From NCBI GenBank assembly GCA_964016885.1, contig OZ024742.1, positions 40,486,001 to 40,550,000 of the forward strand: a DNA stretch of 64,000 nucleotides, in the 5' to 3' direction. Positions 3,696 through 64,000 of this stretch are shown piece by piece. Source of the DNA: Eledone cirrhosa. Lineage: Eukaryota. Below the pieces are notes generated by a model, which was not told where the DNA came from, did not search any database, and saw only the letters and a list, made by a program, of their open reading frames with translations. Position numbers and translations under genes: made by a program. Numbering within the stretch: the first letter of the stretch is position 1; each line of letters starts with the position of its first letter.

Positions 3696-4651
3696 TGTTA
3701 TTCTCAGGGAGATTCAGTGTGACACAGTGTGACACAGTGTGACTAGACTCGTCATTTGAATTACAAGTACAGTCCATCCGATGGGCTTCCAAATAATTTC
3801 TGTCTCCCCAATTTCACTAACAACATGTGAGCCAACTCAAGTCTGTGGTAAATGACATTTGCCCAATATACCATTCAATGGGATTGAACTCAGGACCTAA
3901 TGATTTCAAATGATTTCAAAGCAAATGTCTTAACCATTTGTTCATACTGTATCCACATAAATCATATAGAACTGATATAATTAACCCTTTTAACACATAA
4001 ACTACAAGATCTTTCTATAAACAGATTCTATTCAAACTACGTTATATATCACATCAGCCAACAAGACAAAATAACAATAAACAAAACAGAAAAATAAGTG
4101 AAACTAACCTAATATATTTTCTAGATATTCATCTCTGTTGTTCTCTCTTTGTCTCTGTCTGTCTGTTTGTCTCTCTGTCCAATGCTGTAGGGTTAAGTGG
4201 TCAGTTTTCTCGTCTGTTCTCTCTCTCTATCTATCCATCTCTCTATCTATCAATTTCTCTATCTACCAATATCTCTATCTCTCTCTCTCTATCTATCTAT
4301 CTATCTCTATTTATCTCTATCTATCTATCCCTTACAAGAAACTCTAGTTCTTTAACATTTTCAGGATTCACCCCAACCTTCACTTAATTCCACCATACTA
4401 CATCCATTTCTCTGTATGTCAGTATGTGTACTACCTTCCATCCTCAATCCTTTTTATGTTAAACCACCAGAAGCTTTCCCTGGTTCTTTGACATAAAACT
4501 GATTGTTTTAAATTGTTTATTTTTATCTTAATTTTATTTAAGACCCTTTATCAAGTTATGTTCCAAACACCAGCTTATTATTGAGAAAGTTAGTTATATT
4601 ACTAAATCACACCAAGTTCTTGATTACTTTCAAAATTATTTGAAAATCATA

Positions 4652-5345
4652 TGCATGCTCCGTTGGATGTGTAATAGTAATATACATGAACTAAGTGAGA
4701 AATTAGGAATAAGAGAGATCAGATGCTGTTTACTTGAGAGAAGACTACGTTGGTATGGTCACGTGATGTGCATGAAAGACGATAGCTGCATAAAAAAGTG
4801 CAGGGCAATCAAAATTGATGGTAGTTACGGAGTAGGTAGACCCAGAAAAACCTGGGACGATTTGATAAATTCCGACCTTATACACTTACATCTCTCTAAG
4901 ACAATGTCTCTGGACCGAGACCTTTGGCGCTACGCAGTAATACAGAAGACCCACCTTGCCTATGTACAAAGCAAAACCTACAGTCAGTAGGCACCTCTTA
5001 ACCAAATATACACCCCAATCCACTACCCCTTCCCTATCCTCCCACTCCCACCAACAGCACGAGAAAATGAGATCGAGTTCGTGTAGGTGTCACAACAAAA
5101 AACACACACAGTCCACACTGTAATATGGCCGTGTAGGTAACACGGTAAAAAGTTCCCAGTTCCACACTGTAAATGTGGTTGGTGTTAGGAAGGGCATCCA
5201 GCCGTAGAAAACCTGCCAGATAGTCCTATATGAGCGAGACACGGTCACCCAACCAGCCTTGCCTCAAGTGGGACAACTCCCGTCTAACCCATGCTAGCGT
5301 GGAAAACGGACGTTAAACGAAGATGATGATGATGATGAGGATGAT
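4652..5345 (+). mobile_element. RTE-clade LINE 3' fragment with 3'UTR and (GAT)n tail
   Basis: Translates to CMLRWMC...RRLRWYGHVM...GRPRKTW. Closely similar to the C-terminus and 3'UTR of 26083-28270. Confidence 0.9.
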
Positions 5346-10003: not shown

Positions 10004-10306
10004 AATGGTGACAACATCAGTATAGGGAATATAAAAGTATTAGAGTTCTGAAGGAAGAGAACAAGAACAAGAAAAATATTGATTTCCAAGATAAGTACCA
10101 AGCTGCAGTTGTTTAATTTTGGGCAGGGAGCAGGTATAATTGATTGCATCATCCCTTGGTGTTTAACTGGTGTTTTATTATATCAACCATGCAAGATTGA
10201 ATGACAAAACTGACGACGTTGGTGAGATTTGAACTCAGAACATAATATTATACAGCTAAATGCAAGACATTGTATCTGTTGCTCTACTGATTCTGCCATT
10301 CCATCA

Positions 10307-13300
10307 CACTACACCAGATTGTACCACACCACACACAACTCCACCACACCACACCACACTACACACAACTCCACCACACCACATATAACTCCACCACACC
10401 ACACAAAACTCCACCACACCACACACAACTCCACCACACCACACACAACTCCACCACACCGCACACAACTCCACCACACCACACACAACTCCAGCACACC
10501 ACATACAACTCCACCACACCACACACAACTCCACCACACCACACACAACTCCACCACGCCACATACAACTCCACCACACCGCACACAACTCCACCACACT
10601 ACACACAACTCCACCACACCACACACAACTCCACCACACCACACACAACTCCACCACGCCACATACAACTCCACCACACCGCACACAACTCCACCACACC
10701 ACATACAACTCCACCACACCACACACAACTCCACCACACCACATACAACTCCACCACACCACACACAACTCCACCACACCACATACAACTCCACCACACC
10801 ACAGATAACTCCTCCACACCACATACAACTCCACCACACCACAGATAATTCCACCACACCACATACAACTCCACCACACCACACACAACTCCACCACACC
10901 ACACACAACTCCAGCACACCACACACAACTCCAGCACACCACACACAACTCCACCACACCACACACAACTCCACCACACCACACACAACTCCACCACACC
11001 ACACACAACTCCACCACACCACACCCAATTCCACCACACCACACACAACTCCACCACACCACACACAACTCCACCACACCACACACAACTCCACCACATG
11101 ACACACAACTCCACCACATGACACACAACTCCACCACACCACACACAACTCCACCACACCACACACAACTCCACCACACCACACACAACTCCACCACATG
11201 ACACACAACTCCACCACACCACACACAACTCCACCACACCACACACAACTCCACCACACCGCACCCAACTCCACCACACCACACACAACACCACCACACC
11301 ACATACAACTCCACCACACCACACACAACTCCACCACACCACACACAACTCCACCACACCACACACAACTCCACCACATGATACACAACTCCACCACACC
11401 ACACACAACTCCACCACACCACATACAACTCCACCACACCACACCCAACTCCACCACACCGCACACAACTCCACCACACCACACACAACTCCACCACATG
11501 ACACACAACTCCACCACACACAACTCCACCACACCACACACAACTCCACCACATGACACACAACTCCACCACACCACACACAACTCCACCACACGACACA
11601 CAACTCCACCACATGACACACAACTCCACCACACCACACACAACTCCACCACACCACATACAACTCCACCACACCACACACAACTCCACCACACCACACA
11701 CAACTCCACCACACCACACACAACTCCACCACACCACACACAACTCCACCACACCACATACAACTCCACCACACCACATACAACTCCACCACACCACACA
11801 CAACTCCACCACACCACACACAATTCCACCACACAACACACGACTCCACCACACCACACACAACTCCACCACACCACACACAACTCCACCACATGACACA
11901 CAACTCCACCACATGACACACAACTCCACCACACCACACACAACTCCACCACACCACACCACACACAACTCCACCACACCACACACAACTCCACCACATG
12001 ACACACAACTCCACCACACCACACACAACTCCACCACACCACACACAACTCCACCACACCGCACCCAACTCCACCACACCACACACAACTCCACCACACC
12101 ACACACAACTCCACCACACCACACACAACTCCACCACATGACACACAACTCCACCACACCACACACAACTCCACCACACCACATACAACTCCACCACACC
12201 ACACACAACTCCACCACATGACAGACAACTCCACCACACCACACCCAACTCCACCACACCGCACACAACTCCACCACACCACACACAACTCCACCACATG
12301 ACACACAACTCCACCACACCACACACAACTCCACCACACCACATACAACTCCACCACACCACACACAACTCCACCACACCACACACAACTCCACCACACC
12401 ACACACAACTTAACCACACCAGACATAACTCCACCACACCACACACAACTCCACCACACCACATACAACTCCACCACACCACACACAACTCCACCACACC
12501 ACACACAACTCCACCACACCACACACAACTCCACCACACCACACACAACTCCAGCACACCACACACAACTCCACCACACCACACACAATTCCACCACACA
12601 ACACACGACTCCACCACACCACACACAACTCCACCACACCACACACAACTCCACCACACACAACTCCACCACACCACACACAACTCCACCACACCACACA
12701 CAACTCCACCACACCACACACACAACTCCACCACACCACACACAACTCCACCACATGACACACAACTCCACCACACCACACACAACTCCACCACATGACA
12801 CACAACTCCACCACACCGCACACAACTCCACCACACCACACACAACTCCACCACACCACACACAACTCCACCACACCACACACAACTCTACCGCACCACA
12901 TACAACTCCACCACACCGCACACAACTCCACCACACCACACACAATTCCACCACACCGCACACAACTCCTCCACACCACATACAACTCCACCACACCACA
13001 CACAACTCCACCACACTGCACACAACTCCACCACACCACACGCAACTCCACCACACCACATACAACTCCACCACACCACAAACAACTCCACCACACCACA
13101 CACAACTCCACCACACCACACACAACTCCACCACACCACAAACAACTCCACCACACCACACACAACTCCACCACACCACACACAACTCCACCACACCACA
13201 CACAACTCCACCACACCACACACAACTCCAGCACACCACACACAACTCCACCACTCACACACAATTCCACCACACAACACACGGCTCCACCACACCACAC

Positions 13301-15577
13301 ACAACTCCACCACACCACACACAACTCCACCACACACAACTCCACCACACCACACACAACTCCACCACACCACACACAACTCCACCACACCACACACACA
13401 ACTCCACCACACCACACACAACTCCACCACATGACACACAACTCCACCACACCACACACAACTCCACCACACCACACACAACTCCACCACACCACACACA
13501 ACTCTACCGCACCACATACAACTCCACCACACCGCACACAACTCCACCACACCACACACAATTCCACCACACCGCACACAACTCCTCCACACCACATACA
13601 ACTCCACCACACCACAGATAACTCCACCACACCACACACAACTCCACCACACCGCACACAACTCCACCACACCACACACAACTCCACCACACCGCACACA
13701 ACTCCACCACACCACACACACAACTCCACCACACTGCACACAACTCCACCACACCACACACAATTCCACCACACAACACACGACTCCACCACACCACACA
13801 CAACTCCACCACACCACACACAACTCCACCACACCACACACAACTCCACCACACCACACACAACTCCACCACACCACACACAACTCTACCGCACCACATA
13901 CAACTCCACCACACCGCACACAACTCCACCACACCACACACAATTCCACCACACCGCACACAACTCCTCCACACCACATACAACTCCACCACACCACACA
14001 CAACTCCACCACACCACACACAACTCCACCACACCACACGCAACTCCACCACACCACAAACAACTCCACCACACCACAAACAACTCCACCACACCACACA
14101 CAACTCCACCACACCACACACAACTCCACCACACCACATACAACTCCACCACACCACACACAACTCCACCACACCACACACAACTCCACCACACCACATA
14201 CAACTCCACCACATGACACACAACTCCACCACACCACACACAACTCCACCACACACAACTCCACCACACCGCACACAACTCCTCCACACCACATACAACT
14301 CCACCACACCACAGATAACTCCACCACACGACACACAATTCCACCACACCACATACAACTCCACCACACCACATACAACTCCACCACATGACACACAACT
14401 CCACCACACCACACACAACTCCACCACACCGCACACAACTCCTCCACACCACATACAACTCCACCACACCACAGATAACTCCACCACACCACACACAACT
14501 CCACCACACCACATACAACTCCACCACATGACACACAACTCCACCACACCACACACAACTCCACCACACCACACACAACTCCACCACACCACACACAACT
14601 CCTCCACACCACATACAACTCCACCACACCACAGATAACTCCACCACACCACACACAACTCCACCACACCGCACACAACTCCTCCACACCACACACAACT
14701 CCACCACACCACACACAACTCCACCACACCACACCCAATTCCACCACACTACACACAACTCCACCACACCACACACAACTCCTCCACACCACAGATAACT
14801 CCACCACACCACACACAACTCCACCACACCACACCCAATTCCACCACACTACACACAACTCCACCACACCGCACACAACTCCTCCACACCACACACAACT
14901 CCACCACACCACACACAACTCCTCCACACCACACCCAATTCCACCACACTACACACAACTCCACCACACCACACACAACTCCACCACACCATACACAACT
15001 CCACCACACCACACACAACTCCACCACACCACACACAACTCCACCACACAACACACAACTCCACCACACCACACCACACACAACTCCACCACACCACACC
15101 CAATTCCACCACACAACACACAACTCCACCACACCACACACAACTCCACCACACCACACACAACTCCACCACACCACACACAACTCCTTCACACCACACA
15201 CAACTCCACCACACCACACCACAAACAACTCCACCACACCACACACAACTCCACCACACCACATACTACTCCACCACACCACAAACAACTCCACCACGCT
15301 ACACCACAAACAACTCCACCACACCACACACAACTCCACCACACCACACACAACTCCACCACACCACACACAACTCCTCCACACCACACACAACTCCTCC
15401 ACACCACACACAACTCCACCACACCACACCACAAACAACTCCACCACATCACACACAACTCCACCACACCACACACAACTCCACCATACCACATACAACT
15501 CCACCACACCACACCCAACTCCACCACACCACACCCAATTCCACCATACCACACCACACACAACTCCACCACACCAC
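10307..15577. repeat. ~5.3-kb minisatellite with a 20-bp unit, (CCACCACACCACACACAACT)n
   Basis: Tandem 20-mers with recurrent variants (acatac, acatga, gcacac, caattc) and occasional short indels. Confidence 0.97.
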
Positions 15578-16029
15578 TCAAGACATTGTGTCTGTGCTTA
15601 TGGCCTGTAACTTAGTGGTTTGACAAAAAAAGAGATCGCTATTTATTTATTTATTCATTCAATTTAAACGTCCGTATAGAGATAGTAAACCATGGCAAAC
15701 TAGAGAAAGTATTGAGTACTCCTTACATAAGGTAATCACAGAGAGCTAGTGAGACAAATAATAAAAGAAATTAATTAAAAAAGAGGGAATAAAATAAAAT
15801 AAAATAAAATTTCAAATATTGAAGGCCAAGGGAGGCAGATTATGGATAAGAAAGCATAAAAGGAAAGGAAGATGGGAAATAAGGGAAGCTGTAAAACAGA
15901 AGTTTCTGTTGTTGAAAAATAAATGCCAAACTTGCAAAATATAAGTACTGAAATCAATATGATTGACTAAATAAAGGTGCTGTCCCGGCATGACTGATGT
16001 CTAATAACTGAAAAGAATCAAAGAATAAA

Positions 16030-18486: not shown

Positions 18487-18555
18487 ATTAAATGTTTTAA
18501 ACACTCTTTGATTGTCATTTACATTGTATTTCGGCTATATATATATGTTCTAACT

Positions 18556-19383
18556 AAAAATGAAAGGCAGGCTGTATGATGCCTGCATACGAACAGCAAT
18601 GTTGCATGGCAGTGAGACCTGGGCATTGTGTGCAGAGAATATACGCAGACTGGAGAGGAACGAAGCTTGCATGCTCCGCTGGATGTGTAATAGTAATATA
18701 CGTGAACGGCAAAGCATAAACGAACTAAGGGAGAAATTAGGAATAAGTGGGATCAGATGTTGTTTACTCGAGAGAAAACTACGTTGGTATGGTCACGTGA
18801 TGCGCATGAAAGACGACAGCTGTATAAAAAAGTGCAGGGCGATAAAAATAGACGGTAGCCACGGAGTAGGCAGACCCAGAAAAACCTGGGACGACCTGAT
18901 AAACTCCGACCTCACACACTTACACCTCTCCAAGACAATGTCACTGGACCGAGATCTTTGGCGGCACTCAGTAATACAGAAGACACCGCCTTGCCTAAGT
19001 ACAGAGCGAAACCTACAGTCAGTAGGCACCTCTAACAAAATACACCCCATCCCACTACCCCCACCCCATCCACACCACCCCTTCCAATGTAAAGTTATGT
19101 TGGTACCACAACATCCAGTCCGAAACAAATGAGGTCGTGTAGGTGTCATGACAAAAAAACACACAGTCCACGCTGTAATGTGGCCGTGTAGGTAAGACAG
19201 TAAAAACCTCCCAGTCCACACTGTAAACGTGGTTGGTGTTAGGAAGGGCATCCAGCCATAGAAAACCCTCCAGACAGTCCTATACGAGCAAGACAACCAA
19301 TCTTGCCTCAAGTGGGAAAATTCCCGTCCAAACCCATGCTAGCGTGGAACATGGACGTTAAACGATGATGATGATGATGATGA
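18556..19383 (+). mobile_element. RTE-clade LINE 3' fragment with 3'UTR and (GAT)n tail
   Basis: ORF 18560-19132 (MKGRLYDACIRTAMLHGSETW...RLERNE...WYGHVMRM) is nearly identical to the C-terminus of the 572-aa RTE ORF. Confidence 0.92.
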
Positions 19384-19400
19384 TATATATATATATATAT

Positions 19401-19670
19401 ATATATATGAATGTATATATAGTGTATTTGGTAATACACTGTATGCTTAATTAAAAGCACTTTGAAGACCTGACACTATTGTTTTAAAGTAGTGACTATG
19501 TCACTTACTTCTTTTTTCAACAAACAAAGGGAGATAAGCTGACACATCTCTGTTTCATACTATTGGTATTCCTCAGAGCTTAGCACTCCCTTTGTTTGTT
19601 GGTCTTCAAAATGCTTTTAATTAAGCATACAGTGTATTGCCAAATACACTATATATACATTCATATATAT
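19401..19670. repeat. Long fold-back inverted repeat enclosing a hammerhead ribozyme
   Basis: 19401-19470 is the reverse complement of 19601-19670 with 2 mismatches. The inner arms 19518-19533/19586-19601 are perfect. Confidence 0.9.
19518..19601 (-). ncRNA. Canonical type I hammerhead ribozyme
   Basis: Minus strand: UAAGCU-CUGAGGA(19576-19570)-AUAC caaua GUAU-GAA-ACA gagaug UGU-C^AGCUUA. Stem I is extended by a perfect 16-bp helix after an internal loop. All core nucleotides are canonical; cleavage is predicted between 19541 and 19540. Confidence 0.88.
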
Positions 19671-20833
19671 ATCGCTATTTCAGAGCACCAATTCGAATTT
19701 TCAATTTTTGCTGGACTGGCAACCGCTCTGTATAATCAGTTCCTGATTATTACTGGAATTCTATAAGAATCCAACACACATAATTTTCAACAAAATAGGT
19801 AATCATTGAGGAGATCTTAGAATGTGTGATGAAAGAACTTTGACATACAAATGAATAATGAACAATAAAGATTTTCCGAATGATTTGAAAGTTACAGGCA
19901 GTGTCTTTCATTAGAAATATGATAACAAAAGGGTTAAGGCACTCAAGGGCCAAGTAGATTAGATGGGATTTGAACTTAGACAACAAAGAGCTGAAACAAA
20001 CGCCAATACGCCAATGCGCCAATGCACCAATGCCCTGCCAATGCTTCAACGACTCAGTCTACTAATTCAGACTGGCACTTTATTTATCAACCCCAAACGG
20101 CTGAGAGGAAAAATTAACCTCAGTCAGGTTTGATCTCATAATGTAAGAAGCCAGAATAAATGTGTGTATTTAGATGCATTCTTATCTAATAATGTTATCT
20201 GTACATGTCTATTCATACATACACTATCAGGCACATATACATATATCTACATATATATATACATACACCCCATAAACATATATACACACACCAAAACACA
20301 CAAGTACACGCACACACACATACCCAGAAACATTCACACACACATATATACACACACACACAGATAAACATATATATATATATATACATACATTCCAATT
20401 GGAGGTTAAAAAACAAAATGAACATGCCATATGAATTATCAGTGATAGGAGAGTGATGTAGTAGTGAGTAGGTTACATGTCAAATCAATAGAATACAACT
20501 CATGTGAATATCACAACTAAATAACTTACTATCACTAACATCATCCCCATTACCATCATCATCCTCATCGCAACTATATGTCCAACCGTCAATATCATTA
20601 TCATTACCATCATCGTCTTCATCACATCTATTGGTCCAACTATTTGCACCATCATCTTTATCACCCTCACAACCATCTCTATCATTGCCAACAACAAAAC
20701 CTACCCTCACCACTATCAAAGTTTGCCAGCATCTACTCTTTACACCACAATAGTGACCCCCTTCAGCAACAAGCTAAAGAGGAAAATTTCTACATATTTA
20801 TCTCTCCTGTTAGAAAGAGTAGCCAAATTTCCC

Positions 20834-26082: not shown

Positions 26083-28270
26083 AATCATCATCATCATCAT
26101 CATCAACGTTTAACGTCTGTGTTCCACGCTTGCATGGGTTTGGACGGGGGTAGTCCCACTTGAGGCAAGAGTGATTTTCTTGCTCTCATAGGACTGTCTG
26201 GCAGGTTTTCTACAGTTGGATGCCCTTCCTAACACCAACCACATTTACAGTGTGGGTCTGGGAGGTTTTTACCGTGTTGCCTACACGGCCACATTACAGC
26301 GTGGACTGTGTGTTTTTTGTCGTGACACCTACACGATCTCATTTGTTTCGGCCTGGATGGCGCGGCACCAACATAACTTTACATAGAACGGGGTGGTGTG
26401 GATGGGGTGGGGGTGGTGGTGGTGGGACGGGGTGTATTTTGTTAGAGATGCCTACTGGCAAGGCGGGTCTTCTCTATTACTGAGTACCGCCAAAGGTCTC
26501 GGTCCAGTGACATTGTCTTGGTGAGGTGTAAGTGTGTGAGGTCGGAGTTTATCAGCTCGTCCCAGGTTTTTCTGGGTCTGCCTATTCCGTGGCTACCGTC
26601 TATCTTTATTGCCCTGCACTTTGTTATACAGCTATCATCCTTCATGCGCATCACGTGACCATACCAACGTAGCCTTCTCTCTAGTAAACAACATCTGATC
26701 CCTCTTATTTCTAATTTTTTCCTTAGTTCGTTTATGCTTTGTCGTTCACTTATATTACTATTACACATCCAGCGGAGCATGCAAGCTTCGTTTCTCTCTA
26801 GTCTGCGTATATCCTCTGCACACAATGCCCAGGTCTCACTGCCATGCAACATTGCTGTTCGTATGCAGGCATCGTACAGCCTGCCTTTCATTTTTAGGGA
26901 GAACCCTTTAGCGGCTAATAGTGGTATAAGCTCTCTGAACTTTTTCCACCCAGTTCTGACTCTAGCTACTGTACTTTCAGAGCACCCTCCCCCACTGCTG
27001 ATTTTGTCACCCAGGTAACGGAAGCTGTCCACTATTTCTATAGAACCCTCTGCGCAGTTGAAAGAGCTAGTATTTTGTGGGCACTTGCTGCTACTTATAT
27101 CCCCAGAACACCGGCCACATGTAAAATCTATGTTCTTAGTTAGCTTACCTGTGATCCCACTACATCTTTTATGCACCCAAACTTTGCATTTGGGACACAA
27201 AATGGAATTTCTACCTACGCCTTTCCTACACTCTGCGCATGGCCACTTCCCGGAGGGGACCGCCGCCTTATTTTCTTTCTTACAAACTAGAACTTTAGTC
27301 TTAGCTAGTTTAATTTTAAGGCCTTTTGATTCTAGGCCGTGCTTCCATGTTTGGAATTTCTTCTCTAGCTCGGCCATTGATTCAGCTATGAGCGTTAGAT
27401 CATCTGCGTATAGGAGTTCCCATGGGCAGCCGGTCTTGAACTCCACTGTTATAGCCTGGAGGGCAATAATAAATAGTAGGGGGCTAAGAACAGAGCCCTG
27501 ATGAACACCAACTTTTACACTAAACTCTTCACTATATTCGTTGTTAATTCTAACCTTGCTAACTGTTTCTTTATACATGGCTTGTATAGCTCTCACAAGC
27601 CATTCATCAACACCTAGTTTTCTAAGAGCCCACCAGATAATGGAACGGGGGACTCTGTCGAAGGCCTTCTCCAAGTCGACGAAAGCTAAGTATAGGGGTT
27701 TACTTTTAGCTAGGTACTTCTCCTGTAGTTGTCGTACAATGAAAAGAGCGTCTGTGGTACTTTTTCCTGACACAAACCCGAACTGCATTTCATCTAGATC
27801 AATTCGCTCTCTGATTAGTTGCGCTATAACTTTTTCCGTGACCTTCATGACCTGGTCGATTAATTTAATGCCTCTATAGTTACTCCTATCTAGGGCATCT
27901 CCTTTACCCTTATAACAGTTAACGATAATGCTGCTGCGCCAGTCCTTCGGAACAACCCCATTCTGTATGACTTGGTTGACTATCCGGGTGACCATGGTGT
28001 GTCCCACCATACCAGATGCCTTCAGCATCTCGGCAACTATTTCCGAAGGCCCAGCCGCCTTGCCTGTCTTCATATCTTTGATTGCCTTACTTATTATACT
28101 ACCCTCGACATTGCTGGTCCCTCTATTGGGTCGATGTGGGGGAGACTGTCTTTCTCCCATTTATTCTCCTCATTTAGTAGCCTTTCATAGTGACACTTCC
28201 AAGCTACCTTCTTATCGGCGTCGGTGATGGCAAGTATGCCGTCATCATTAAGTACACACTTCTCCCCGAC
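26083..28270 (-). mobile_element. 5'-truncated RTE-clade LINE
   Basis: RT ORF, 3'UTR and (GAT)n tail. The 5' end abuts (TA)n and the endonuclease domain is absent. Confidence 0.95.
26442..28160 (-). pseudogene. RTE reverse transcriptase ORF fragment (572 aa) with an embedded PHD-type zinc finger
   Basis: Motifs KAAGPS, YKGKGD..NYRGIKL, QFGF, FVDLEKAFD, GVHQGSVLSPLLF, LYADD, FRYLG, RLRWYGHV. C4HC3 pattern CAEC..CPKC..HKRC..CGRC. The N-terminus is frameshifted or truncated. Confidence 0.93.
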
Positions 28271-57671: not shown

Positions 57672-57713
<42 letters not shown>

Positions 57714-57745
57714 ATTAAATAAATGGAAACTATATTTATAAAACC

Positions 57746-57822
57746 ATATTTATTTCATTATATATATTTCAGGGATATCATATTAACAATATGCTATGCC
57801 TTCCTCAGACAAAATACAATAT
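57746..57822 (-). ncRNA. Type I hammerhead ribozyme in the inverted pLTR
   Basis: Reverse-complement copy of 60447-60523, with core TCCTCAG at 57802-57808. Confidence 0.8.
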
Positions 57823-60446
57823 AAACAGTTTTATAAATAAATAGATTCGACATACCGTAACAACATCGACTTGTATTTGAAAAAGTTGAATTGGCAGTGA
57901 AAAAATTGTACACAGAGAGAAAGAAAGAGAGAAAAAAGAAAGAAAGACAGAAAACGAAGAAAAAGAAGAAATGCATGGAACAAAATAGAGAGATGGAAAG
58001 ATGGATAAAGAGAAGAACTTCATGTAAAGAAACAGAGAGAGATATATATATATATAGAGAGAGAGGAAATAGAGATAGATACATATATATAGAAAACTAG
58101 GTAGTGGGACGTCTGTTGAGTAAACGTATCAATGATACATTTATTTATTTATTTATTTAGCTCTAGTATTAATGTAAGGGAGATATATGGAGAGAAACCA
58201 GCTGTTATATAGAGAGAGAAAAAAATATAGAGAGAGAAAAAATTTAAAAATAACCAGACATAGGCGAGGCGTAAAAACCCTATGTTTTAATGTAGAGGTA
58301 TTAGTATTTATAAAAACCAGCCACTATATTGTAAATATCAGTATTCCTGAATGAGACATGTATCCATAATGTGTGAAAATTAATGATCTTATGTTTAGTT
58401 TTTAAAAAAAATTCATATGTTTATGTGATAACTACAAACATCTATGTGAATTTACATGATCAACTCTGCAAACCCTAAGCTCACGGAAAACATTCTCATT
58501 GTGGTATAAAAATTTAAGTATACATATATGTGTATATATATATACACACAAATATATATAGAGTCAATATTACTATTCCTGTCTTTACTCTACAAGATTA
58601 TCTATCAAGCAGAAATAGAGAGCAGATTTCAATATACTAATAAAAATATATATCAGAAACAAAACTAAAAAATAACAATAATAATAATAAGTAATAATAA
58701 AATAGAAAACTAAAAAATATTACGAAAGAATATTACATATTAAAAATATTACATATTAAAAATATTAAAAATAAAAATATTAGAAAATACTACGATAATA
58801 AAAATAAAAATAAACCACAAAGATCAACCCTTCAAAATTAATTGACAATATATTGCCAAGTTCATTATAAGCATCAGAGTTGAAAAACAGATATAGTCGA
58901 AAAACGGAATTTAGTCTCAAGAGGGATTCCTTTTAATTCATCCTCTGAGACATGTGACCTCTGCGCAGAGGAGATATTCTTTATACTAAAATCTAAAAAT
59001 TCCCTTAATCTACGGACAAATTTATTCAGTTGCTGCAAACATAGATTAAACTCAACGTTTAAATATAAATTTAAATTTAAAATGTAGTATATTTAGTTTG
59101 ATTTATAATTATATGGGAAACTAGCCGATAAATCTTTGATTCCTTCTTTTTATTCTTTTTATTTTTATTTTTATTTTTATTTAAACATTCTTCATGAAAA
59201 ATTAAGCTACCCTAAATGTTGATGCTCCAAATATTTCGAATAAACGTTACACTAGATAAACTTCTATATTAAATATAAGAACACATGTAGACCAAATGGG
59301 CATCCTAAACTTTTTGAAATGATCTTTGCTAGATGCGATTTGATAGATAATTTTTGGCTGTATCTGATTTTCGACTCTGATGCTTATAATGAACTTGGCA
59401 ATATATTGTCAATTAATTTTGAAGGGTTGATCTTTGTGGTTTATTTTTATTTTTATTATTGTAGTATTTTCTAATATTTTTATTTTTAATATTTTTAATA
59501 TGTAATATTTTTAATATGTAATATTCTTTCGTAATATTTTTTAGTTTTCTATTTTATTATTACTTATTATTATTATTGTTATTTTTTAGTTTTGTTTCTG
59601 ATATATATTTTTATTAGTATATTGAAATCTGCTCTCTATTTCTGCTTGATAGATAATCTTGTAGAGTAAAGACAGGAATAGTAATATTGACTCTATATAT
59701 ATTTGTGTGTATATATATACACATATATGTATACTTAAATTTTTATACCACAATGAGAATGTTTTCCGTGAACTTAGGGTTTGCAGAGTTGATCATGTAA
59801 ATTCACATAGATGTTTGTAGTTATCACATAAACATATGAATTTTTTTAAAAAACTAAACATAAGATCATTAATTTTCACACATTATGGATACATGTCTCA
59901 TTCAGGAATACTGATATTTACAATATAGTGGCTGGTTTTTATAAATACTAATACCTCTACATTAAAACATAGTGTTTTTACGCCTCGCCTATGTCTGGTT
60001 ATTTTTTAATTTTTTCTCTCTATATATTTTTTTCTCTCTCTATATAACAGCTGGTTTCTCTCCATATATCTCCCTTACATTAATACTAGAGCTAAATAAA
60101 TAAATAAATAAATGTATCATTGATACGTTTACTCAACAGACGTCCCACTACCTAGTTTTCTATATATATGTATCTATCTCTATTTCCTCTCTCTCTCTCT
60201 CTATATATATATCTCTGTTTCTTTACATGAAGTTCTTCTCTTTATCTATCTTTCCATCTCTCTATTTTGTTCCATGCATTTCTTCTTTTTCTTCTTTTTC
60301 TTCTTTTTCTTCGTTTTCTGTCTTTCTTTCTTTTTTTCTCTCTTTCTTTCTCTCTGTGTACAATTTTTTCACTGCCAATTCAACTTTTTCAAATACAAGT
60401 CGATGTTGTTACGGTATGTCGAATCTATTTATCTATAAAACTGTTT

Positions 60447-60523
60447 ATATTGTATTTTGTCTGAGGAAGGCATAGCATATTGTTAATATGATATCCCTGA
60501 AATATATATAATGAAATAAATAT
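60447..60523 (+). ncRNA. Type I hammerhead ribozyme near the 3' end of the pLTR, just upstream of the ORF
   Basis: Stem I AUAUUgUAUUUUGU/AUGAAAUAAAUAU; CUGAGGA(60461-60467); stem II AGGcAUAgCAUAUU guu AAUAUGaUAUcCCU; GAAA(60499-60502); palindromic AUAUAUAU stem III; cleavage predicted after UA at 60510. Confidence 0.82.
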
Positions 60524-60696
60524 GGTTTTATAAATATAGTTTCCATTTATTTAATATTGTAAATATACTCCAAATACTTGTCGAGTGCTTTTATATCAGT
60601 TATAAATATTTACTAGTTGTAACCCAACAATTTAAATATAACTTTCCATGTATCTTGCTCCAATACTGTTGAGCGCTTTATATTATAACTGGAAAA

Positions 60697-62916
60697 ATGG
60701 AATTCTTTAAGATTACTTCCTCTTTAAAAGACATACTTCTACCTAGAAACAAAGACTTTATAAAACAATTAATAGATAAATCTGACTCTTTTATAAGGAG
60801 AATCAGGTGGCGAGCATTCCACTTTGATAAATCTAATATAAATGAAAATGTCTCGGACTTAAACAAAGTTTTCAAATCTAAAAGAAATCCACCCCCTAAC
60901 AAACTTTTATCTGACTTTGAAAACGATATAATTTCTATCATACAAGGGGTCAAATTCAAGAGAAACTTCAAAGGCCAGGAATATCTGAAAGGCATTAAGG
61001 ATAACATTGAGAGCTTAGAGAAAACTGAGAAGATCTTGGTGAAATCTGACAAGACCAACAACCTCTATGGAGTGCAGAAAGACATGTATAATGGCCTCAT
61101 ACTGAAAGAGCTGAGGAAAAAGTACAAGGTAGCAGATTGGGCCGAGCTTGAGAAAATGAATGTCGAAGCATCTTGTATAATGCACGAGTTGGAAATTGAG
61201 AACAGAACACAACCTTTCGTGCCCAGGAAACCGAAGATCAATATGAAAGATCACAAGAGGAATTTTGAAAATGACTTGCCAGTTAGATTGATCGCACCAT
61301 CAAAATCGGACCTGGGCAAATTAAGCAAAAACATTCTTGACAGGGTGATACAGCAAATTAAGAACTTGGATTGTTTATCTAACCTGAGCTTGTGGAAGGG
61401 AACTGGAGAGGTTGTTGAGTGGTTTAAGCAAATTAAATATAACAATAATAATAAGTTTATTCAACTTGATATAGCTAACTATTCTTCTTCTATTACCCCT
61501 AATCTACTAAATAAGGCACTAAATTACGCATTCAAACATACTGACCTAACTAGCAATGAAATGCATATTATATTATCGGCTAGGAAAACTTTGATAGAAT
61601 TTAATGACCAACTATGGACCAGAGCAGATAGAGATAGCAATTTTGACATTACTATGGGATCATCCGACTCAGCTCAGGTAACTGACCTTGTGGGCTTATT
61701 TTTAATCAATTCGCTACATAGGAAAATACCTGGTACTACCGGAGGTTTATATAGAGATGACATGCTTTTACTTATTGATAATAATAACTCTGAACTAAAT
61801 AGAAAATGTAAACAAATTACACAATTTTTTAATTACTTTAATCTTAAAATAGAAATTGAGAACAACCATAGAATAGTCAATTTCCTAGATATAACATTAA
61901 ATCTCAACACATGTCTTCACTATCCTTTTCACAAGTTGAATGAAAACTTAAACTATGTCAACTTTAACTCTAACCACCCCAGATCTGTCAAAAACACTAT
62001 AGTAAACTCTGTTCAAAAACGTATCTCTAGGATCTCGTCGAATAGAAAGATTTTCGACGAAAAAGCCCAATACTACAATGAAGCATTAGCTAGAGCAGGA
62101 TATGCTGATAAGATTGTGTACATAGATAATGATAGACAAACTAAACAAAATAACAATTATTTTAATTACGGCAACAACCTTAACAACTATAATAGAAAGC
62201 ATTACAATAATTCCAAAGGCCAAAAAAGAAATAGAACTAGGAACATAATTTGGTTTGCCCCCCCCCCCCCCTTCTCACTAAACATTAAAACCCACATCGC
62301 TAAACTATTTTTTAAAGCTCTTGATAATCGCTTCCCTAGAACACATAGGTATCACTCAATTTTCAATAGACATACAATAAAATTAACCTACTCATCCACC
62401 AAAAATTTAGCACAAAATATTAATAGAATAAATAATAGGAACTTAAAACCTAGTGATAATAGCATAAATAATATACAAGTTAACAAATGTAACTGTAGAG
62501 ATAGATCTAAATGTCCGTTAAATAACAACTGCTTAGTTAAAAATATAGTATACAATTGTAATGTTAATACTGACTCTAATTCTTTTAACTACGTCGGTTC
62601 CACATCGACGGAATTTAAACTTCGCTATAATAACCACAAGAATTCTTTCACAGATCCAAGCAAAAAATCTTCAACGGCACTATCAGGCGTACTCTGGCAA
62701 CTTAAGCTAGATAACGTTAGATATTCGACGGCTTGGAATATAGTCTCAAGAGGGATTCCTTTTAATTCATCCTCTGAGACATGTGACCTCTGCGCAGAGG
62801 AGATATTCTTTATACTAAAATCTAAAAATTCCCTTAATCTACGGACAAATTTATTCAGTTGCTGCAAACATAGATTAAACTCAACGTTTAAATATAAATT
62901 TAAATTTAAAATGTAG
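60697..62916 (+). CDS. Penelope-like (Naiad-type) reverse transcriptase / GIY-YIG endonuclease polyprotein, 739 aa, uninterrupted
   Basis: N-terminal FIRRIRWRAFHF, KSDKTNNLY, KDHK.NF, RLIAPSKSDLG, QLDI, TMGS, YRDD, NFLDITLNL, SNHP, WF.PP; zinc linker CNC..CP..C; IVY..YVG..FK.RY..H (GIY-YIG); CDLC..E; C-terminal CKH. Confidence 0.95.
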   Translation: MEFFKITSSLKDILLPRNKDFIKQLIDKSDSFIRRIRWRAFHFDKSNINENVSDLNKVFKSKRNPPPNKLLSDFENDIISIIQGVKFKRNFKGQEYLKGIKDNIESLEKTEKILVKSDKTNNLYGVQKDMYNGLILKELRKKYKVADWAELEKMNVEASCIMHELEIENRTQPFVPRKPKINMKDHKRNFENDLPVRLIAPSKSDLGKLSKNILDRVIQQIKNLDCLSNLSLWKGTGEVVEWFKQIKYNNNNKFIQLDIANYSSSITPNLLNKALNYAFKHTDLTSNEMHIILSARKTLIEFNDQLWTRADRDSNFDITMGSSDSAQVTDLVGLFLINSLHRKIPGTTGGLYRDDMLLLIDNNNSELNRKCKQITQFFNYFNLKIEIENNHRIVNFLDITLNLNTCLHYPFHKLNENLNYVNFNSNHPRSVKNTIVNSVQKRISRISSNRKIFDEKAQYYNEALARAGYADKIVYIDNDRQTKQNNNYFNYGNNLNNYNRKHYNNSKGQKRNRTRNIIWFAPPPPFSLNIKTHIAKLFFKALDNRFPRTHRYHSIFNRHTIKLTYSSTKNLAQNINRINNRNLKPSDNSINNIQVNKCNCRDRSKCPLNNNCLVKNIVYNCNVNTDSNSFNYVGSTSTEFKLRYNNHKNSFTDPSKKSSTALSGVLWQLKLDNVRYSTAWNIVSRGIPFNSSSETCDLCAEEIFFILKSKNSLNLRTNLFSCCKHRLNSTFKYKFKFKM

Positions 62917-63946
62917 TATATTTAGTTTGATTTATAATTATATGGGAAACTAGCCGATAAATCTTTGATTCCTTCTTTTTATTCTTTTTATTTTTATTTT
63001 TATTTTTATTTTTATTTTTATTTTTATTTTTATTTAAACATTCTTCATGAAAAATTAAGCTACCCTAAATGTTGATGCTCCAAATATTTCGAATAAACGT
63101 TACACTAGATAAACTTCTATATTAAATATAAGAATACATGTAGACCAAATGGGCATCCTAAACTTTTTGAAATGATCTTTGCTAGATGCGATTTGATAGA
63201 TAATTTTTGGCTTTATCTGTTTTTCGACTCTGATGCTTATAATGAACTTGGCAATATATTGTCAATTAATTTTGAAGGGTTGATCTTTGTGGTTTATTTT
63301 TATTTTTATTATTGTAGTATTTTCTAATATTTTTATTTTTAATATTTTTAATATGTAATATTTTTAATATGTAATATTCTTTCGTAATATTTTTTAGTTT
63401 TCTATTTTATTATTACTTATTATTATTATTGTTATTTTTTAGTTTTGTTTCTGATATATATTTTTATTAGTATATTGAAATCTGCTCTCTATTTCTGCTT
63501 GATAGATAATCTTGTAGAGTAAAGACAGGAATAGTAATATTGACTCTATATATATTTGTGTGTGTATATATACACATATATGTATACTTAAATTTTTATA
63601 CCACAATGAGAATGTTTTCCGTGAACTTAGGGTTTGCAGAGTTGATCATGTAAATTCACATAGATGTTTGTAGTTATCACATAAACATATGAATTTTTTT
63701 TAAAAAACTAAACATAAGATCATTAATTTTCACACATTATGGATACATGTCTCATTCAGGAATACTGATATTTACAATATAGTGGCTGGTTTTTATAAAT
63801 ACTAATACCTCTACATTAAAACATAGGGTTTTTACGCCTCGCCTATGTCTGGTTGTTTTTAAATTTTTTCTCTCTCTATATTTTTTTCTCTATATATATA
63901 ACAGCTGGTTTCTCTCCATATATCTCCCTTACATTAATACTAGAGC

Positions 63947-63977
<31 letters not shown>

Positions 63978-64000
63978 ATGTATCATTGATACGTTTACTC

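Follow-up and report, generated by a model that had tools for sequence, protein, structure and literature searches.

A 64,000-nt stretch of the Eledone cirrhosa genome (contig OZ024742.1; here called the window) carries a hammerhead ribozyme (HHR) motif at the apex of a rod-like fold-back of about 270 nt. What kind of element does this motif belong to, and how did the long hairpin around it arise? An earlier note, made from the sequence alone, had offered a viroid-like or retrozyme-like non-autonomous element, or the 3' end of a Penelope-like element (PLE) whose inverted terminal duplication was primed at the ribozyme stem. Our analysis argues with good confidence that the locus is a dispersed copy of an HHR-bearing 317-nt tandem repeat, likely an animal non-LTR retrozyme inserted in trans by a PLE reverse transcriptase (RT) and GIY-YIG endonuclease. 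That PLE enzymes moved the unit is what we infer from the marks that insertion left in the genomic sequence.

The hammerhead motif and its helices

The type I motif lies on the minus strand at 19535..19582 and was identified from the sequence, a descriptor scan, folding, and covariation in relatives. As the earlier note had described, its core is intact, with C3 at 19576, CUGAGGA, and GAAA at 19556-19553; C17 is at 19541, and cleavage is predicted at 19541/19540. Stem I has 6 bp (19582-19577 with 19540-19535), stem II has 4 bp (19569-19557), and helix III (19553-19542) has 3 bp. C3-A9, G12-A14, A15.1-U16.1, the NUH triplet, three stems and an open stem I are all present. A 3x1 internal loop separates stem I from a perfect 16-bp helix (minus strand, 19518..19601; 19601-19586 with 19533-19518) that is intrinsic to the repeat family, and the outer helix, put earlier at 70 bp with two mismatches, comprises 72 bp with two non-Watson-Crick positions (19432 and 19460). 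The locus folds with a z of -22.8, and 0 of 200 shuffles folded equally well.

The motif is nevertheless not "fully canonical", as had been claimed. Pair 10.1-11.1 is A-U in the window and in the main subfamily and G-C in other subfamilies, the G10.1-C11.1 pair having been called highly conserved (PMC4209133). The 3 bp of stem III are what is left of a 4-bp stem whose fourth pair is broken by a G-G mismatch (19550/19545), and stem III is absent from the predicted minimum-energy fold. At 19545 the window has G, where C is found in 132 of 151 motifs and G in 3 (one of them outside the family). Helix III in sibling copies has 4 bp and is near- or fully palindromic. Its predicted pairing probability is 0.01 in the window versus 0.36-0.44 in sibling L002, and the predicted self-duplex is worth -5.0 kcal/mol in the window versus -12.4 in L002 and -20.3 in one U3-A8 sibling. 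The window ribozyme is thus predicted to have been damaged by a later helix III mutation and would cleave poorly, and its description as the best candidate for an active ribozyme is doubtful because helix III is better in siblings. Activity cannot be ranked by folding energy alone, since for the monomers of two U3-A8 siblings misfolding is predicted, with the active fold lying 2.9 and 8.8 kcal/mol above the minimum, yet one of them self-pairs at the -20.3 kcal/mol given above. With its single HHR, the window copy would be unable to release a monomer circle on its own; two consecutive HHR units, which define an "active" retrozyme, do occur at other loci.

The descriptor scan of both window strands returned this HHR and two copies of another HHR-like motif (57.8 and 60.5 kb), and no opposite-strand ribozyme motif was found by descriptor at the rod. 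A comparison with Rfam matched no hammerhead at the gathering score anywhere in the window, nor any at E up to 10 within 19000-20000. The gathering score of RF00163 (Hammerhead_1) is 34 bits, and L147, a good sibling, reaches only 14.6 bits (E 0.88); loop II aligns to the Rfam consensus loop.

Two pieces joined head to head

The insertion, at 19399-19794, is made up of two pieces whose 5' ends meet at 19601. The first piece (19399..19601, minus strand) covers unit positions -25 to about +177, counting C3 of the HHR as 0, and carries the HHR. Its 3' end lies in (TA)n and is the commoner of the family's two 3' ends, and it is 96% identical to a natural copy, L030, over 199 nt. The second piece (19601..19794, plus strand) is head-to-head with the first, extends from +106 via the tail into the next unit, as far as about -21, lacks the HHR, and is 95% identical to L030 over 192 nt. 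The 72-bp arms (19399..19470 in the first piece and 19601..19672 in the second) both correspond to unit positions +106..+177, that is, to the positions present in both pieces. The 27-nt "tail" that lies between the family's two preferred 3' ends is internal here (19672..19698, plus strand), and the second piece ends off both of these sites, as do 55 of 262 family ends.

The (TA)n target, read from the sequence at 19385..19410, follows directly on a LINE 3' fragment (about 18547-19384) that ends in a (GAT)n tail and matches 26087-26904, where the ORF has an RVT_1 domain. (TA)n is therefore present at one end only: the locus had been described as bounded by (TA)n, which holds on the left, but on the right the element continues to 19794. 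No target-site duplication of 7 nt or more was found within 60 nt of the insertion ends. The longest Met-ORF has 51 aa, in agreement with the earlier statement that coding capacity is lacking, and the RT plus GIY-YIG ORF of an autonomous PLE is absent.

The window has other repeats of its own. The LINE family is also represented by a 572-aa ORF at 26442-28160 (minus strand), which has RVT_1 and, within its C-terminal part, a weak match to a PHD finger, and by a further 3' fragment at about 4650-5340 in addition to that at 18547-19384. A 20-nt minisatellite of extreme strand skew is repeated about 260 times at 10200-15600.

A dispersed family of 317-nt units

A similarity search of the 3.0-Gb genome, in which the window lies on contig C3, gave 45 matches from the 40 scored of 1,446 candidates, the best with 95-97% identity. 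Exact patterns were matched 188 times for a 31-nt HHR core, 1,222 times for a 29-nt 3' motif and 1,973 times for the 27-nt tail in its family form, with 0 matches for the reversed-pattern controls. A core pattern of the family had 0 matches in viral contigs. The unit, as seen in a natural partial tandem, has a period of 317 nt, a GC content of 35%, no coding sequence and one type I HHR. Its monomer is predicted to fold as a branched circle with 63% of bases paired (z -5.9 on 60 shuffles).

Two tandem arrays are long, with about 15 and 17 units (L214:3457-8957; L181:8527-9963 with L123:16-3216), both belonging to U3-A8 subfamilies. In a 62-nt segment, divergence between neighbouring array units is about 11-12%, so that these arrays are older than most dispersed copies. 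Another array, of a 163-nt deletion unit (L213:6883-7510), has lost the whole HHR but still shows both 3' ends and a fusion to an inverted PLE fragment, which suggests that the ribozyme is dispensable for insertion. Whole head-to-head insertions have also been duplicated nearby (L064-L067 at C1:26514090-26517335, and L128 with L129), with the copy inverted at a distance of 3 kb or in direct orientation at 32 kb; local segmental duplication is the probable cause. Literature searches on retrozymes, hammerheads or Penelope elements in octopus and cephalopods did not turn up this family, which may already be catalogued in a supplement, Repbase or Dfam.

Judged from these genomic copies, the HHR is under structural constraint at the family level. 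Among 151 motifs, one of them outside the family and the set enriched by search design for the window's subfamily, the 3-8 pair is C-G in 95 and U-A in 42 (137 of 151 for either), and stem II is present in several paired forms. In an alignment of 30 copies, 90.8% of cells are paired and 19 of 33 pairs show double changes, counts that are inflated by kinship since the copies were hand-picked for variety and are related; 0 of 500 shuffles match this level, and slid controls reach 40-50%. Helix III pairs 1-3 were fixed by the search anchor and are uninformative for covariation. The HHR stems, the 16-bp helix and the core 3-8 pair covary between subfamilies, the extended 16-bp helix showing double changes at 12 of 19 pairs in the 30 chosen copies. 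One internal-loop U and two loop II A residues, in the region of a possible loop I/loop II contact, are invariant across the 30 copies.

Insertion architecture and the origin of the fold-back

The 27-nt junction at 19601 has one match in the genome with up to one mismatch allowed, namely that in the window. This refutes an intrinsic rod as a family trait and leaves the viroid-like reading of the locus unsupported. Contigs from three sequencing runs of one sample contained neither an empty-site joint nor a piece across the locus, an outcome that favours no reading. The first 100 of the 1,222 3'-motif matches, all on C1, correspond to 78 insertions: 57 have a head-to-head join (53 simple pairs and 4 complex), 20 are single and 1 is tail-to-tail. 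The overlap between pieces ranges from 25 to 317 nt in the 53 simple pairs (at least 50 nt in 46), the junction differs in each, and the tail is present on one end only in 30.

The 3' ends of 262 pieces, taken as BLAST ends accurate to a few bases, fall at about +177, before the tail (104), at about +203, after the tail (103), or elsewhere (55). Thus 207 of 262 lie at two preferred sites some 27 nt apart. Ends at these sites lie in or beside (TA)n in 83 of 104 and 87 of 103 cases, respectively (170 of 207 together), versus 12 of 55 elsewhere. As overlaps and junctions vary and ends cluster in (TA)n, fold-backs appear to be a routine product of insertion in this family, and not an RNA structure. 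The comparison that had been suggested, of copies with both arms and copies with only one, cannot tell the models apart, since inverted arms are present in most copies and the junction differs from copy to copy. Priming at the ribozyme stem agrees with the geometry of the window copy, where the pieces end at -25 and -21; the stem base was rejected as a third start site for the family, such ends not being significantly enriched (14 of 55 off-site ends, p = 0.14).

Pieces that reach the HHR cleavage site (+36) continue past it in 62 of 63 cases. A pile-up of 5' ends at this site was not found: three ends lie at +32..+40, and since the mild excess over +29..+62 is not significant (p = 0.07), it was dropped as a sign of cleavage in vivo. 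More than one unit lies past the anchor motif in 16 of 91 pieces, and long pieces enter another unit, never an ORF.

A two-site haplotype is common to 29 of 38 tandem-unit pairs and 60 of 71 inverted-arm pairs; in pairs of random copies, each site differs about half of the time. This led us to reject different templates for the two pieces of one insertion, and it fits either one circle or one uniform multimer, without telling them apart. A residual excess of discordance at the two sites (11 of 76 versus 85 of 1,900) may reflect an occasional template change within an insertion. The background difference between pieces, about 4.4%, suggests about 2% change per copy since insertion.

Penelope-like elements as candidate partners

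At family level, the features of PLE-type insertion are all present: a head-to-head, 5'-truncated copy, a one-sided tail, (TA)n and partial tandems. A GIY-YIG search of the genome gave at least 150 scored matches. Three long ORFs carry RVT_1, and two of these also carry GIY-YIG, with a CxxC linker of the type described for Neptune PLEs. Named homologues of one PLE ORF are mostly bivalve proteins. The genomic PLE 3' ends consist of an HHR-like motif, a spacer, a TA run and a tail of about 30 nt, the same layout as in the unit. An autonomous PLE that has the unit as terminal repeat was sought among 30 of the at least 150 GIY-YIG loci plus 7 longer loci, and none was found. These 37 loci had one neighbouring unit copy only, separated by (TA)n, and no sequence match to the unit. 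Two loci, L032 (with a unit 650 nt after a GIY-YIG ORF) and L146, were considered as partner elements and rejected, the unit being a separate insertion beyond (TA)n.

In five of 58 free 5' flanks, the unit is joined directly and head to head with a PLE 3' piece in inverted orientation, and at least three PLE families take part: L028 and L183 (with the L221 family), L123 and L147 (with the L146 family), and L211/L213 (with a third family). L163, L130 and L180 (weak or TA-spaced) and L160 (which matches DNA flanking a reference) were left out of this count. The L028 junction holds short inverted bits of both unit and PLE, and suggests that this fusion was one event. Many family 3' flanks also hold PLE ends, and the fusions could be later insertions beside older PLE copies at the common (TA)n target. 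The 58 free 5' flanks had no same-sense upstream sequence in common.

Several candidate PLEs were noted. Two Neptune-like frames, L146:5809-8622 (minus strand) and L216:1775-5062 (plus strand), measure 938 and 1096 codons from stop to stop and are candidate intact elements. The window itself contains an uninterrupted 747-aa ORF at 60673-62916 (plus strand) with RWR, DKT, YRDD, CxCx5C and a YVG endonuclease-like motif, which match those given for Hydra-clade PLEs (PMC8557442); it had a weak match to a Neptune-like ORF (E 2e-7) and none in Pfam or PDB. Upstream of this ORF, at about 60461, is an HHR-like motif whose inverted copy, at about 57808, falls within a long inverted duplication (associated segments 57702-60567 and 63204-64000).

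Discussion

In the mechanism that we favour, arrays or partial tandems would be transcribed, and HHR cleavage, likely aided by dimer pairing of the near-palindromic helix III, followed by ligation, would produce monomer circles. The PLE protein would nick both strands at (TA)n, each nick starting a cDNA at one of the two internal sites that flank the tail. Both cDNAs would read through an uncleaved or religated HHR and then be joined at their 5'-truncated ends, so that a fold-back would arise wherever the two pieces cover the same unit positions. For the window copy, the second cDNA likely began off-site at -21, giving the 72-bp arm, and the helix III mutation would have been acquired after insertion. 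The retrozyme-like element, the PLE connection and the insertion-made inversion, all raised in the earlier note, are supported.

Could the unit instead be the pseudo-LTR (pLTR) of an unsampled autonomous PLE, the window holding its 5'-truncated insertion with the usual inverted copy? All insertion marks are PLE-like, the PLE loci compared number only 37, and retrozymes have been reported as relatives of pLTRs (10.64898/2026.07.22.740005). Nevertheless, we consider it improbable: the unit repeats itself with a period of 317 and has no upstream ORF, pieces longer than one unit run upstream into another unit, arrays reach 15-17 units, and the free 5' flanks lack a common upstream partner. The first two of these points also speak against the 3' end of an autonomous PLE that had been proposed for the locus.

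Two further explanations concern the arms. The 72-bp arms might be part of the element itself, an intrinsic viroid-like rod or a MITE-like fold-back, as the great stability of the fold and the inverted arms of most family copies would allow; with a junction that occurs once, arm lengths of 25-317 nt elsewhere, one ribozyme polarity by descriptor and a monomer that folds as a branched circle, this is scarcely credible. Alternatively, the arm could have been made after insertion, by local inverted duplication or hairpin repair, or through twin priming of the RTE/L1 LINE type in place of PLE. Twin priming is an established L1 mechanism and predicts near-contiguous pieces. The window pieces are nearly contiguous on the RNA, and a LINE tail lies directly left of the insertion. 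However, a target-site duplication of 7 nt or more is missing within 60 nt of the ends, the unit has no poly(A) or LINE tail, and twin priming would not give the two fixed sites at which family pieces usually end, making this explanation very improbable as well.

A broader proposal can be made, which we regard as possible and rather less likely than not: that the retrozyme hitchhikes on several PLE clades at once without a common sequence, the PLE proteins recognizing the layout of HHR, spacer, TA and tail, priming both strands on a circular monomer, and being able to switch between retrozyme and PLE RNAs within a single event, which would generate the head-to-head fusions. If so, the thousands of copies would be direct genomic footprints of the integration of retrozyme circles, including footprints of subfamilies that swapped the catalytic C3-G8 for U3-A8.

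The window locus itself is ordinary, one damaged copy among thousands. Its family matters because the enzyme that moves animal retrozymes has so far been proposed from co-occurrence and homology only, while these copies carry two start sites, a one-sided tail and head-to-head joins that purified PLE protein explains, a few of them being fused to PLEs. The family thereby supplies named RNA and protein candidates for PLE-driven retrozyme insertion. It also calls for caution, as a long perfect hairpin that encloses a genomic hammerhead can have been made by insertion and need not be a viroid-like rod.

Comparison with known systems

Like viroids and viroid-like hammerhead rods, the window locus places an HHR within a long paired stem; unlike them, it is a genomic repeat, its outer stem is specific to one insertion, and its ribozyme has one polarity only.

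The family corresponds, at the level of sequence, to the definition of a non-LTR retrozyme, being a short, low-GC, non-coding HHR unit found both in tandem and dispersed. Non-LTR retrozymes were defined, and PLEs named as their likely mobilisers, by Cervera and de la Pena (2020, PMC7229834). With those of coral, mussel and axolotl described there, the family shares the short low-GC unit, the type I HHR, forms ranging from monomers to multimers, the lack of an ORF, and a molluscan type of host as indicated by PLE homologues. It differs in that most of its copies form head-to-head pairs in (TA)n that bear the tail on one side only, the words "inverted" and "microsatellite" having 0 matches in the text of that paper, and in its helix III of 4 bp, known here from genomic sequence, versus the 1-2 bp described.

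Retrozymes of vertebrates have been linked to pLTRs and proposed to be non-autonomous PLE derivatives (Li et al. 2026, 10.64898/2026.07.22.740005). The relationship proposed is the same as ours, and so is the distribution, with dispersed monomers and multimers in few places. The Xenopus work rests on co-occurrence and pLTR homology, whereas our case rests on insertion structure and fusions, without homology. In that study, "active" refers to two consecutive HHR units, of which the window copy has one, and 1 of 9 predicted retrozyme dimers cleaved in vitro and 8 did not.

A further likeness is to the insertions of endonuclease-bearing (EN+) PLEs (Neptune, Poseidon, Hydra) and to pLTR hammerheads. 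The family has no RT/endonuclease ORF and no match to the PLE terminal repeats tested, and its HHR has the full loop I/loop II layout, not the minimal form of PLE hammerheads. At the same time, according to Craig et al. (2021, PMC8557442), PLEs insert at (TA)n as partial tandems, together with a 5'-truncated copy in inverted orientation, and carry a tail of 30-40 bp at one end; head-to-head is reported as the usual PLE arrangement, and mobilisation in trans has been reported (Arkhipova et al. 2013, PMC3846280); and the U3-A8 core variant and palindromic helix III have been reported for PLE hammerheads (Cervera and de la Pena 2014, PMC4209133). Purified PLE protein nicks and extends both strands in vitro, from two internal sites that bound the tail, and does so independently of HHR cleavage (Frangieh et al. 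2024, PMC11167929). The repeat family agrees with these accounts (PMC8557442, PMC4209133, PMC11167929, PMC3846280) in its partial tandems, inverted 5'-truncated copies and (TA)n targets, in the tail of about 30 nt at one end with the HHR upstream of it, in the U3-A8 variant, and in the read-through of the HHR.
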